A stretch of 64,000 nt of DNA from Eledone cirrhosa. Lineage: Eukaryota. Made by a program: the position numbers and the translations under genes. The notes beneath the pieces are model-generated. The model saw only the letters and a program-made list of their open reading frames with translations, ran no database searches and was not told the origin of the DNA. Positions 3,435 through 40,830 of the stretch are shown piece by piece. The stretch is taken from contig OZ024740.1 of the NCBI GenBank assembly GCA_964016885.1, positions 23,374,001 to 23,438,000 on the forward strand, read 5' to 3'. The stretch's first letter is position 1; each line of letters opens with the position of its first letter.

Positions 3435-3634
3435 GGAACGAGTAGGACACCGGCGGCTGAGCTCAAGCCGTTTCGGCGGCTAATTCTGGATTAGTAGTCC
3501 AGAATTACCCGTCGAAACGGCTTGAGCTCAGCCGTCGGGGTCCTACTCGTTCCTATTATCCACTCTACTACCCTAAGTATTGAGTACTTTGGTGCGTTAT
3601 GGTCCACCTGGTTCCTTACCACATTTCCTTCGTT
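3435..3634 (+). mobile_element. family A hairpin+tail insertion in (TA)n
   Basis: GGAACGAGTAGG...CCTACTCGTTCC palindrome plus ~80-nt tail ending CATTTCCTTCGTT; near-identical copies at 20466, 29565 and 40275. Confidence 0.85.
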
Positions 3635-3744
3635 ATATATATATATATATATATATATATATGTGTGTGTGTGTGTGTAGAAGAACGTAGGAAGGAGCGT
3701 AAAAAATAAATAACACTAGTTATAATAATAATATATATAATAAT

Positions 3745-3922
3745 TGTTTCTACTTTTTGGCACAAGGCCAGCAATTTCCCAGTACATTACTGGTACTTTA
3801 TTTTATCGACCCCTTAAGGATGAAAGGCAAAGTTAACCTCTGCGGGATTTCAACTCAGATCGTTAAGGGACGAAACTATGCTGGAAAGCATGGTGTCTAA
3901 CTCTCTACCGATACTGCCAAAT
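3745..3922 (-). mobile_element. tRNA-derived SINE
   Basis: Reverse complement of the SINE at 40050: TGGCAGTATCGG A-box-like motif, B-box-like motif, GCCTTTCATCC...GGGGTCGATAAAATAAAGTACCAG body. Confidence 0.85.
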
Positions 3923-3947
3923 ATTAATATATAATAATGTATATATA

Positions 3948-4066
3948 GTAATAATAATAAATTTGAAGACTAAAATCCAAAGAGGGCTCGAAAAGGATAA
4001 ATATATATCAAATATATAAGAAACGATTCTTTGCTTAAACTTTAAACTGTTATTTTAATAAATAAA
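3948..4066 (-). mobile_element. family M short (TA)n insertion (tail plus arm end)
   Basis: TGAAGACTAAAATCCAAAGAGGGCTCGA shared with the copies at 35290 and, reverse-complemented, 23812. Confidence 0.7.
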
Positions 4067-4091
4067 TATATATATATATATATATATATAT

Positions 4092-4893
4092 GGAAAGTTA
4101 TATTTAAATTGTTGGGTTACAACTAGTAAATATTTATAACTGATATAAAAGCACTCGACAAATATTTGGAGTATATTTACAATATTAAATAAATGGAAAC
4201 TATATTTATAAAACCATATTTATTTCATTATATATATTTCAGGGATATCATATTAACAATATGCTATGCCTTCCTCAGACAAAATACAATATAAACAGTT
4301 TTATAGATAAATAGATTCGACATACCGTAACAACATCTACTTGCATTTGAGAAGGTCGATTTGGTAGTGACAAAATTGTACACAGAGAGAAAGAAAGAGA
4401 GACATTAATACTAGAGCTAAATAAATAAATAAATAAATAAATGTATCATTGATACGTTATTCAACAGTCGTCCCACTACCTAGCTTTCTATATATGTATC
4501 TATCTCTATTTCCTCTCTCTCTCTATATATATATATATGTCTCTTTCTGTTTCTTTACATGAAGTTCTTCTCTTTATCTATCTTTCCATCTCTCTATTTT
4601 GTTCCATGCATTTCTTCTTTTTCTTTTTCTTCGTTTTTCTGTCTTTCTTTCCTTTTTTCTCTCTTTTTCTCTCTTTCTCTCTCTCTTTCTTTCTCTCTGT
4701 GTACAATTTTGTCACTACCAAATCAACCTTCTCAAATGCAAGTAGATGTTGTTACGGTATGTCGAACCTATTTATCTATAAAACTGTTTATATTGTATTT
4801 TGTCTGAGGAAGGCATAGCATATTGTTAATATGATATCCCTGAAATATATATAATGAAATAAATATGGTTTTATAAATATAGTTTCCATTTAT
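4092..4893 (-). mobile_element. family B foldback insertion with two hammerhead copies; tail on the left
   Basis: Inverted arms ~4178-4402 and ~4680-4893; tail 4092-4177 contains AGCACTCGA; (TA)n on both sides. Confidence 0.85.
4796..4861 (+). ncRNA. type I hammerhead ribozyme (mirror copy 4220-4285 on the minus strand)
   Basis: Stem I TATTTTGT/ATGAAATA; core CTGAGGA; stem II AGGCATAGCATAT..ATATGATATCCCT; GAAA-T ATAT A-TA with palindromic short stem III. Confidence 0.8.
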
Positions 4894-4922
4894 TTAATAT
4901 TGTATATATATATATATATATA

Positions 4923-4954
4923 TTTCGTTTCTGACCCTCCCAAAGTATAAGAAT
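4923..4954. mobile_element. ~32-bp termini-only remnant of family C (Naiad-like PLE)
   Basis: TTTCGTTTCTG is the reverse complement of the tail end at ~36843-36853; it is fused to TGACCCTCCCAAAGTATAAGAATA, the arm end seen at ~36772-36795. Confidence 0.7.
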
Positions 4955-5592
4955 ATATATATATATATATATATATATATATATATATATATATATATAT
5001 ATATATATATATATATATATATATATGTATTCATATGAGGATGGCAGCTGATAATAAGGAGTTTTCAAAGTAGAGTGTAAATATTCATGAAATTATGGTT
5101 AAATTGTGAGTCTTGTAATCTGGAGTATCTACGTAATAAAATAAATACACACGTGTGTATGTGTGTGTGTGTGTGTGTGTGTGTGTGTGTGTGTGTGTGT
5201 GTGTGTGTGTGTTGTGGTGTGTGTGTGTGTGTGAGGTGTGTGTGTGTGTGTGTGTGTGTGTGTGTGTGTGTGTGTGTGTGTGTGTGTGTTGTGGTGTGTG
5301 TGTTGTGGTGTGAATGGTGTGTGGTGGGTGTTGTGGTGTGTGTGGTGTCTGGTGGGTGTGGTGTGTGTGTGTTGTTTTCTGTTGCGTGTTGTGCTGTGAG
5401 TGCTGTGGTTTGTGTGGTGTGTGGTGTGTGTGTGTTGTGGTGTGTGTACTTTCAAATATACGGAGTATCATTAGAAATAATATATTAAAGGAGGTGTGAT
5501 TATCACAAATGTGTGTATGATATATAAGATGTATAACATATTATATGTATATGATGTATGACGTATTATATATATATATATATATATATATA

Positions 5593-38239: not shown

Positions 38240-38518
38240 GATACTAATTCTTTTACCTATTTCGGTTCCACTTCCACTTCCTTCAAAGCTAGATTTTATA
38301 ATCACAAATCGTCTTCGAAATACCAACTTGAAAGAACTAACACGGCACTCTCGGAACTCATATGGTCCTTAAAAGACAAACATATTAACTATAACATCTC
38401 TTGGAGGAAGGTTTGTTCCGCCTTTCCTTACCTGAATTCTTCCCTATCCAGAACATGTAATCTCTGCCTAGCCGAGAAATTTACCATTATATCTAATTTC
38501 AATTCTATAATAAATTGA
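38240..38518 (+). pseudogene. GIY-YIG endonuclease fragment with C-terminal CxLC..EK motif
   Basis: YFGSTSTSFKARFYNHKSS..TALSELIWSLK..ISW..CNLCLAEKFTI. Confidence 0.8.
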
Positions 38519-39734
38519 CGCACAGATTTATTTTCGCTCTGCTTGCATACATTCCATAGAACATTCCATAAAGTATTCAGCTAATATCTCAATACCCTAT
38601 TAGTTAAAATCCTCTTCTCTCAAAGGCTTATATATCTTTTACAAATATACCCATCTTTCTACCTTATTTCAGTATTATATATTATATAATACAATTTACT
38701 CATTCTATGTCATTCTTCTTTATCATTTTCCTTTCTTCCTTTTTTCTTTTTTAATTTCTAATCTCTAATCTGTACTTTTTCTTCCCAATTACTTCTCAAT
38801 TCATATTATTACTCACTACAGCATTATCCATTCTTCCATCTTTCCTCATATTATTGGCCATTAAAACTATATTTTTTTAATACATTATAATATTACCATT
38901 AGAAGATTTCCGTAAAACATATAAACTTTTTTGACGTTAGATATTCTTTTCTTCTTTCTTCTCTCCTTCCCTGCTCGTTTTAAACCCACTACTTACTTTT
39001 ACTTTTACATATTACAATACATAAAAACAAACTTAAACCCCAACTTATTTCTTTTTAATATTTTATAATATTACCATTAGAAAATATTTCGTAAACATAT
39101 ATACTTTTTGACGTTAGATATTTTCTTCCTTAAACATTCTTTTTCTTCTCTCCTTCCATACTCATTTTAAACATACTATTTACGTATACATATTACAATA
39201 CATAATAACAAGCTTAAATCCTAACTAATTCCTCTAAATTCATAACTCATTTATTCTTCTCCTTCTTTTCACATTATATCCTTAATATCCTTAATATTTT
39301 TATCTTAATAATACATATTAATAAATTCTTTTCTTCGCACATATTATTAACCCCTTCAATATACAAACCTTAATTTAATACTATTCTTAATTCCTTTTTC
39401 TTCATGCATACACCTCATTAACTTTTAACTTCAAAATCTTTTAAATTATCTATTATCTTCCAACGGTGTTTTAATTTCTTTCTGTGAGACAATATTTTCT
39501 CAGTTGTAAAGGCTATCTCTCTCTCTCTCTATCACCCATTTCTCCTCCTCTCTCATCTTTCGTTCCTATACTCCTCCGCCACCATCCTTTACTCTTATTT
39601 CTTCCTCTTCCTTACCCCCAACCCCACCCCGCACTTTTTCCCAATCTCATACATCCATCTTAATTTATTTTTCATATGTTGATTTAAAAATACACTGCTC
39701 ACACGTGTTTTTTAAGCTTCATATCATGTCTCCC

Positions 39735-39805
39735 TATTTTATCTGATGAGAACGCAGATATCATCCCATGATGATATTTGTTTTTGAAATGCGCATAATA
39801 AAATA
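39735..39805 (+). ncRNA. intact type I hammerhead ribozyme (mirror copy 38041-38111 on the minus strand)
   Basis: TATTTTAT-CTGATGA-GAACGCAGATATCATC ccat GATGATATTTGTTTTT-GAAA-TGCGCA-TA-ATAAAATA. Confidence 0.9.
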
Positions 39806-40049
39806 CTTGGAACTCTTTTAACCAACTTTTGATCTTATATATATATATATATATATATATATATATATATATATATATATATATATATATATATATATAT
39901 ATATATAAATATATATATATATATATATATATATGTATGTATATATATATATATATATATATATATATATATGTATGTATGTGTATATATATATATATAT
40001 ATATATATATATATATATATATATATATATATATATATATATATATAAA

Positions 40050-40237
40050 GGCGGTGGATTGGCAGTATCTGTAGAGGGTCGGACGCCATGCTTTCCAGCA
40101 TAGTTACGTCCCTTTACGATCTAAGTTCAAATCCCGCCGAGGTTGACTTTGCCTTTCTTCCTTACGGGGTCGATAAAATAAAGTACCAGTAATGCACTGG
40201 GTAATTGCTGGCCTTGCGCCTAAAGTAGAAACAATTA
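40050..40237 (+). mobile_element. tRNA-derived SINE
   Basis: GGCGGTGGATTGGCAGTATC head, GTTCAAATCC B-box, conserved body. Confidence 0.9.
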
Positions 40238-40274
40238 TATATATATATATATATATAAAATATATATATATATA

Positions 40275-40464
40275 GGAACGAGTAGGACCCCGACGGCTGA
40301 GCTCAAGCCGTTTCGACGTCTAATGAGTCCAGAATTAGCCGTCGAAACGGCTTGAGCTCAGCCGTCGGGGTCCTACTCGTTCCTATTACCCACACTACAA
40401 CCCTAAGTATTGAGTACTTTGGTGCGTTATGGTCCACCTGGTTCCTTACCACATTTCCTCCGTT
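40275..40464 (+). mobile_element. family A insertion retaining most of a hammerhead
   Basis: CTAATGA-G..C-GAAA-CGGCT tgagctc AGCCG-TC-GGGGTCCT at 40320-40374, with a GUC cleavage triplet. Confidence 0.85.
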
Positions 40465-40514
40465 ATATATATATATATATATATATATATATATATACAT
40501 ATACATATATATAT

Positions 40515-40830
40515 TTAAGTTAAACAAGGTTCAATGAATAAATCAAAGAATGAGTTTTACAATAGATATGAAACACTCAACAGCAATGGTTTTCCAAAGT
40601 TATTAATATTAATTCAAAAATATTAACAAAATTGATATTAATAGATGGTTAAGATTCAGTCATCTACCATGACTGAATCTTAACCATCTACTATGTCTGG
40701 GTATGTCATGCATCATCTTATTTTATCTGATGAGGACGTACTGTTGAAGTTAACTCAGTACCTCTGAAATATGTATAATAAAATATACTTGATCACAAGA
40801 ACATCTATTTATCATATTTTGAATTAATAT
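40515..40830 (-). mobile_element. family D insertion: tail at left, internal 22-bp hairpin, hammerhead arm
   Basis: AACACTCAA tail motif; TAGATGGTTAAGATTCAGTCAT/ATGACTGAATCTTAACCATCTA hairpin; ATATTAATTCAAAA/TTTTGAATTAATAT ends. Confidence 0.8.
40719..40785 (+). ncRNA. type I hammerhead ribozyme
   Basis: TATTTTAT-CTGATGA-GGACGTACTG..CAGTACCTCT-GAAA-T atgt A-TA-ATAAAATA. Confidence 0.85.

Follow-up and report, generated by a model that had tools for sequence, protein, structure and literature searches.

The 64,000-nt stretch of the Eledone cirrhosa genome analyzed here (assembly GCA_964016885.1, contig OZ024740.1, positions 23,374,001 to 23,438,000, forward strand), hereafter the window, contains families of short repeats related to Penelope-like elements (PLEs), whose tails share the motif GAGTRY. 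This motif is the 3' strand of a bulged hairpin that is predicted to fold in the RNA of PLEs of the Hydra type, and comparison of sequences indicates that the hairpin is a real, clade-specific cis element. In full-length Hydra-type copies, it occurs twice, between the hammerhead ribozyme and the ATG. Inserted copies end just before either hairpin, and the pair therefore likely tells the copying enzyme where to start. Each hairpin probably positions the reverse transcriptase (RT) of the element, with copying starting about 3 to 9 nt 5' of it. The genome is 3.0 Gb in size, and the first 41 kb of the window is dense with short repeats inserted in (TA)n runs.

The hairpin is laid out as RCTC, stem, loop, complementary stem strand, 2-nt bulge, and GAGY, with the bulge, mostly TT or TA, directly 5' of GAGY and a loop of 2 to about 50 nt across families. 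Its frequency was determined in a chance sample of 95 unselected stretches (1.004 Mb), consisting of the window and 94 further 10-kb stretches at even steps. The sample yielded 1,170 ends at TA junctions, of which 847 were non-redundant after clustering and 738 had a length of at least 140 nt. The RCTC/GRGY hairpin is present in 30 of the 738 ends, compared with a mean of 3.1 and a maximum of 7 in 50 shuffles, with 11 ends for a bulge on the 5' side, and with 2 ends for swapped arms. The ACTC form at 20 to 75 nt is present in 15 ends, versus 4 with a 5'-side bulge and 1 at 76 to 131 nt, and 4-mers of equal composition gave 0 to 3 of 738.

The original prediction had treated GAGTRY as a linear word in the tails of unrelated families. 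All ten 9-mers named in support of it are present, with positions and strands correctly reported; they stop 22 to 59 nt short of the first TATATA. The word does lie above background near the (TA)n junctions, as proposed, but the excess is small: at 50 to 69 nt from the junction, it occurs 27 times, whereas the other bins lead one to expect about 11.5 (Poisson P of 7e-5, with subfamilies not fully collapsed), and its reverse complement, used as a control, occurs 15 times versus 15.8 expected. The linear word is therefore enriched only about 2-fold. What had been read as a word is half of a covarying bulged hairpin, in which GAGC forms are as common as GAGT. Nine of the ten 9-mers lie in such a hairpin, but the remaining one (33125..33133, + strand) lies outside any and lacks a 5' partner conserved among copies; in its family, the motif actually resides in a long-looped bulged hairpin at 33022..33090 (+). 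Among the looser forms of the motif, that of family M belongs to a true member with a long-looped hairpin, but those of families H and I and of the Neptune-like copies are look-alikes without a hairpin.

Copies end either before hairpin 1 (short ends) or before hairpin 2 (long ends), the two hairpins being spaced 78 to 166 nt apart. Hairpin 1 is retained in long-ended copies, and hairpin 2 was seen only in copies that read through the junction; in family A, it is followed by an ORF (open reading frame) of 719 aa, and in family K, by an ATG 14 to 15 nt later. Fourteen families were compared, seven retrieved by protein search alone and seven by patterns containing the outer arms. At the junctions found by protein search only, both hairpins are present in all seven families, and an eighth family has a weak second hairpin. 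A pattern built on the outer arms of family A alone, placed at most 10 nt from the long end, gave 342 matches versus 0 in the control, and nearly all of the 100 matches listed have the full 4-bp inner stem and the bulge, 3 to 6 nt past the long end. The twin-hairpin pattern gave 1,337 matches versus 12 in the control. An earlier read-through pattern for family A matched mostly TA-ended copies, and a DNA search of the genome with the family A tail, which skips common words, gave no hits. Inner pairs 1 to 3 of hairpin 1 are formed in 14, 13, and 14 of the 14 families, with three to five pair types each, and this pairing holds only in the 2-nt bulge register, with the 1- and 3-nt registers failing. 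In hairpin 2, the corresponding pairs are formed in 13, 12, and 3 families.

The same fold, with G-C at its base, was recognized by eye in published coral and sea cucumber Hydra consensus sequences. Hydra-2_Amil and Hydra-2_Ajap terminate in this fold, and Hydra-1_Ajap has two copies of it at its start. Curated elements from other animals, which the original prediction had suggested checking, thus gave a mixed outcome by eye, with three of six clear, two degenerate, and one uninformative. When six 9-mers were compared with the whole supplement of PMC8557442, 8 hits were obtained, 4 in the small Hydra file, all in hairpins, although line breaks may hide further hits. An Rfam search of window positions 1 to 41200 gave no match at the gathering score among the 150 of 239 matches listed.

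The carrier families are not unrelated, as had been claimed. Families A, B, D, J, K, and M are, by their predicted proteins and read-through copies, pseudo-long terminal repeats (pLTRs) of homologous, Hydra-type PLEs. A total of 21 ORFs of 624 to 896 aa carry YRDD and a C-terminal YxG motif, that is, an RT followed by a GIY-YIG endonuclease. RW and DKT are each present in 18 of the 21, two misses of each being later-starting ORFs, and a CxCx5C linker is present in 19. The residue following RW is R, T, I, or L, not K, and a single cysteine lies between GIY and YIG in A and J (by eye), so that no CCHH is present. An endonuclease was found upstream in 15 hits for A, 5 for B, 11 for J, and 1 of 20 for M, and read-through from A, B, D, J, and K leads into a Hydra-type N terminus. 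The proteins of the other families are 41 to 45% identical to that of family A, and the tails and untranslated regions (UTRs) no longer align with one another; the hairpin thus reflects conservation by descent. The ORFs are 2.2 to 2.7 kb long (the clade is generally below 3 kb), and family A has a tandem period of about 3,542 nt (3.54 kb). A hammerhead core was detected by regular expression in 7 of the 14 references, with a variant core in A by eye, and in six of the seven core-positive references (B, D, F223, F230, F229, F321, and F323) hairpin 1 is located 62 to 68 nt after the GAAA of the core. Every end studied is a TA junction by design. The GIY-YIG remnant of the J insertion at 37920-39835 has 52,003 first-look candidates in the genome. 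Pfam gave a weak RVT_1 match on a Neptune-like protein only and none on the Hydra-type proteins. The structure model of the family A protein shows an RT fold that matches generic RTs (predicted local distance difference test score of 64, mostly below 50 at the N terminus) and gives no indication of an RNA-binding site. Two metagenome scans found no relatives. A tandem array of full-length family A units, with frames of 717 to 719 aa, is present at locus L327 (G000:C1:91475000-91487300).

No endonuclease lies upstream among the hits for E (91), F (2), 33125 (9), 34722 (1), or 20907 (4). Family E is a short hammerhead-bearing unit without an ORF that reads through into another hammerhead unit, features that mark it as a putative non-autonomous passenger. 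Short tandem hammerhead units of this family that keep hairpin 1 were also observed (L337 to L346). Families H and I, the Neptune-like families, and family C do not share the hairpin.

Ends were mapped on 21 junction references, with reference J2, which contains a TA run, excluded. Nearly all unselected ends (68 of 70) lie 0 to 14 nt before a hairpin, 29 at hairpin 1 and 39 at hairpin 2, as do 238 of the 249 ends from all loci. Most are compatible with positions 5 to 7 nt before hairpin 1 and 3 to 6 nt before hairpin 2. In an independent run (X1), loose (TA)n ends of family A fell 3 nt ahead of hairpin 2 in 313 contigs and 5 nt ahead of hairpin 1 in 75; two further runs, X5 and X6, yielded just 3 and 4 contigs. 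A UA-rich patch is present at each end, with TAT or ATA at positions -10 to -3 of 24 of the 28 hairpins versus a background of 31%. A linear word kept by descent or chance, without a structural role, while the ends follow UA microhomology, would agree with the ends coinciding with UA patches, with the commonness of GAGTRY, and with the weak folding of the hairpins. However, only 19 to 24% of the TA-like sites fall inside the two 0- to 14-nt windows, and the roughly 80% outside them hold only 2 of the 70 ends; in addition, compensatory pair types occur across UTRs that cannot be aligned. Covariation and end mapping have thus largely refuted this explanation, which is highly improbable.

A long end is paired with a short one in 27 of the 28 unselected two-armed insertions and in 76 of 77 overall (counts in which the "long" end of E and M is without a confirmed hairpin 2), and none of the 77 is long+long or short+short. 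This pairing bears on RNA processing, in which a nuclease or terminator would make RNA 3' ends just before each hairpin, followed by ordinary target-primed reverse transcription from the 3' end. Processing predicts the same end positions, and small bulged stems often serve as nuclease substrates. However, two pools of cut RNA would yield the long+long and short+short insertions that are missing, and the long arms continue intact across the hairpin 1 site. Moreover, PAc, the Poseidon element of Anolis, starts internally on unprocessed RNA (PMC11167929), and processing is an unlikely source of the ends.

Among the two-armed copies of A, B, D, J, and K, 62 of 67 are long+short, and their inner ends are equal in 30, with the short arm reaching further in 26 and the long arm in 6 (counts that include duplicates and about 5 tandem read-throughs). 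A stop signal, with the cDNA primed at the long end folding back and copying halting before hairpin 1 (compare the self-priming in the available text of PMC3846280), accounts for the long+short pairing and for the 30 of 62 insertions that are near-perfect palindromes with equal inner ends. It fails where the short arm extends further 5' (26 of 62), since such an arm cannot be a copy of the long arm, and a tail cannot be copied from a tail-less short arm. The J insertion at 37920-39835 illustrates both points: its long arm carries hairpin 1 at 37974..37998 (-), and its short-ended arm at 38234..39835 (+), with a Hydra-type GIY-YIG remnant, 3' UTR, hammerhead, and short end, extends about 1.2 kb beyond the long arm in the 5' direction and has no tail. 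Neither arm therefore arose by fold-back copying of the other. In vitro, PAc starts at both of its sites (PMC11167929), and a stop signal is very unlikely.

A signal acting in DNA, such as a pLTR site or cruciform read by the endonuclease or the transcription machinery, is suggested by the tail requirement for endonuclease recognition in D. virilis (as reported in PMC11167929) and by most pairs being Watson-Crick and foldable on either strand. However, the bulge is always at the sense 3' side, G-T outnumbers A-C by 4 to 1 on the sense strand in inner pairs 1 to 4 of hairpin 1 (small numbers), and most inserted DNA copies lack hairpin 2 even though their end is marked by it. A DNA-level signal is therefore quite unlikely.

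Under the preferred explanation, in which the hairpins position the RT, the 3' ends of the element would be cDNA starts, as for PAc. The endonuclease would nick both strands of the (TA)n target, and each nicked 3' end would pair with the UA patch that precedes one hairpin. On one uncleaved RNA, two enzymes, one at each hairpin, would then copy upstream, with the hairpin 1 enzyme leading, and each hairpin, lying just 3' of its start, would not be copied by the enzyme positioned there. The two cDNAs would finally be joined head to head, resulting in an inverted pLTR of which just one arm has a tail, as long as the hairpin spacing (78 to 166 nt). With two enzymes on one RNA, each hairpin would be used once, and the short arm would rarely be shorter upstream. 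The inner junctions of family A lie mostly 56 to 68 nt before hairpin 1, in the hammerhead stem II/loop region (e.g., 3435-3633, 20466-20657, and 40275-40463), and its arms extend beyond the hammerhead cleavage predicted at 25 nt, in keeping with a template that was not cleaved. The tandem hairpins may, more tentatively, each dock one subunit of an RT-endonuclease dimer, with both cut strands priming at once on one RNA. The same docking would, quite possibly, amount to programmed twin priming from a portable 20-nt start signal that explains both the tail and the inverted pLTR of PLEs. The single motif once proposed to position both priming sites is thus replaced by a separate hairpin a few nucleotides 3' of each end; the underlying idea, a cis signal tied by its geometry to the two element ends, holds.

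Several observations weigh against this explanation. The hairpins fold weakly, with z scores of -0.03 to -2.8 at 12 window sites, and the outer stem has a probability above 0.5 in only 9 of 14 cases for hairpin 1 and 10 of 14 for hairpin 2, falling to 0.01 for hairpin 1 of family A. The antisense strand also folds in 7 of 14 cases for hairpin 1 and 5 of 14 for hairpin 2. The families are related, so the shuffle P values overstate the enrichment; the outer arms were part of the patterns that retrieved 7 of the 14 families, and the starts of hairpin 1 were picked by eye. Hairpin 2 often has just one or two inner pairs, and a search for it past the long ends of E, F, and 33125 gave 1, 0, and 0 matches; E has an unbulged 4-bp stem at the corresponding place, broken in some copies. 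The Hydra consensus sequences from Crog and Obim are degenerate, and Hydra-1_Amil is uninformative. The mapped ends are intervals, owing to TA microhomology, and vary by several nucleotides, family A supplies 32 of the 70, and the inner-end counts carry the duplicates and read-throughs mentioned above. The Neptune-like families are also two-ended, yet without the hairpin (by eye), and the 96 nt shown of PAc contain no recognizable hairpin of this kind.

Previous publications cover the clade, the tail, and the inverted pLTR, as well as initiation at two internal sites (PMC8557442, PMC3846280, and PMC11167929). Craig et al. (2021; PMC8557442) described the Hydra clade of endonuclease-positive PLEs, which, in the available text, shares with the families here a C-terminal GIY-YIG without CCHH, RW and DKT motifs, a CxCx5C linker, a pLTR hammerhead, (TA)n targets, an inverted pLTR, and a one-sided tail. 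In contrast, that text gives tails of 30 to 40 nt, versus 78 to 166 nt here, and describes no hairpin after the ends. The head-to-head PLE insertions in the available text of PMC3846280 have the same anatomy as those here; self-priming is favored there, whereas the arm geometry here better fits two RNA-templated arms. For PAc, Frangieh et al. (2024; PMC11167929) reported that initiation is internal, at two sites delimiting the tail, and requires RNA 3' of the start sites, with both DNA strands cut and extended, hammerhead cleavage dispensable, and a dimer predicted. All of these features resemble the mechanism proposed here. In PAc, copying begins within the ORF, at an AC-rich stem-loop that shares no homology with the target, and the binding motif is unmapped (PMC11167929), whereas the ends here coincide with UA patches of the 5' UTR, upstream of the ATG, each followed by the same bulged hairpin. 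No description of the hairpin was found in the literature searched, the coverage of which excluded subscription papers and Repbase notes, or in the available parts of PMC7229834, PMC2377424, and bioRxiv 10.64898/2026.07.22.740005.

PLEs are the retroelements closest to telomerase, and their choice of start site and one-sided tail have so far been unexplained. The sole in vitro study of a PLE left the RNA signal unmapped, and a covarying hairpin pair with fixed geometry permits a direct mutational test. The pair also allows Hydra-type elements, as well as their non-autonomous passengers, to be recognized, and the hairpin could serve RT-based DNA insertion as a compact start signal. Partial likenesses to the Hydra-type hairpins are found in three other systems. 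In L1 twin priming, two primers use one RNA, with the second annealing at random sites and the arms without overlap. Telomerase uses short primer-template pairing beside an enzyme-bound helix, with the boundary lying 5' of the template, and the hepadnavirus epsilon is a bulged hairpin that recruits the RT, with priming templated from its own bulge.

In the window, hairpin 1 of family A (4-bp outer stem, 2-nt bulge, and 4-bp inner stem) lies at 3562..3585 (+), within a two-armed insertion at 3435-3633 with the short end on the left and the long end on the right. Further family A copies are at 20586..20609 (+; within 20466-20657), 29623..29646 (+; within 29565-29694), and 40392..40415 (+; within 40275-40463, with a mutated 5' strand), and a diverged A-like copy is at 31459..31480 (-). 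Hairpin 1 of family B is at 4153..4172 (-), and read-through copies of this family contain hairpin 2 and a Hydra-type ATG. Family D has hairpin 1 at 6102..6127 (+), with hairpin 2 and an ATG in related copies, and at 40575..40600 (-), in the long+short insertion at 40515-40826. In family F, which is represented by one copy in the sampled DNA, the hairpin at 6938..6957 (+) has a bulge of 1 nt. Hairpin 1 of family M (GCTC/GAGC, long loop) is at 23899..23943 (+), in the long+short insertion at 23814-23981. Family E has hairpin 1 at 36137..36155 (-), with a short end at 36233; family J, at 36932..36956 (+), in the insertion at 36876-37010; and family K, at 37515..37539 (-), in the insertion at 37462-37865. 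Three GAGC-type bulged hairpins had been overlooked previously: one at 20907..20932 (-), 52 nt before a (TA)n run; a degenerate copy of a further family at 29312..29337 (-), intact in three of the five ends of its cluster; and one with a 6-bp inner stem at 34722..34745 (-), in a single-copy, 70-nt insert.

Other identities were considered for the hairpin and rejected. It is not hammerhead stem III, which has similar letters in several Hydra hammerheads: hairpin 1 lies 62 to 84 nt after the GAAA of the core, and no core precedes it in the manner required of stem III. As a core-promoter element, it would have its spacing to the ends fixed on the wrong side, and for a new small ribozyme it seems too small and its loop too variable. 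In locus L327 (family A) and in L161 to L189 (F113), the hammerhead core has U3/A8 in place of C3-G8, presumably a compensatory variant overlooked by standard descriptors.

Family C had been considered a Naiad-like family that lacks the motif. The motif is indeed not shared by C, but the family is not Naiad-like and carries motifs like the A and B boxes of RNA polymerase III; we take it to be a tRNA-derived short interspersed element (SINE), although ARAGORN found no tRNA in it, and a SINE-like family is therefore a poor control for a PLE tail motif. It is abundant, with copies at 3745-3919, 5594-5770, 22500-22678, and 40061-40235 and 194 hits in the sampled loci. Neptune-like elements, with a C-terminal endonuclease and a CxxC linker, are located at 8500-11967 (-), 25243-25826, 36267-36852, and 26039-28585 (-), and two such families have ends about 45 to 55 nt apart, with the hairpin absent. 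Family H, at 24112-25005, is retrozyme-like, a tandem unit of 466 nt that contains a hammerhead (37.7 bits for Rfam HH9, less than the gathering score); it has two ends and, by eye, lacks the hairpin. A broken element at 12513-17700 (+), presumably L1/Tx1-like, contains an ORF1 with a zinc knuckle followed by endonuclease and RT fragments. Very long, trinucleotide-based low-complexity arrays occupy 41100-52300, with open frames of 1,300 to 1,700 codons that are Thr/Pro-rich in one frame.

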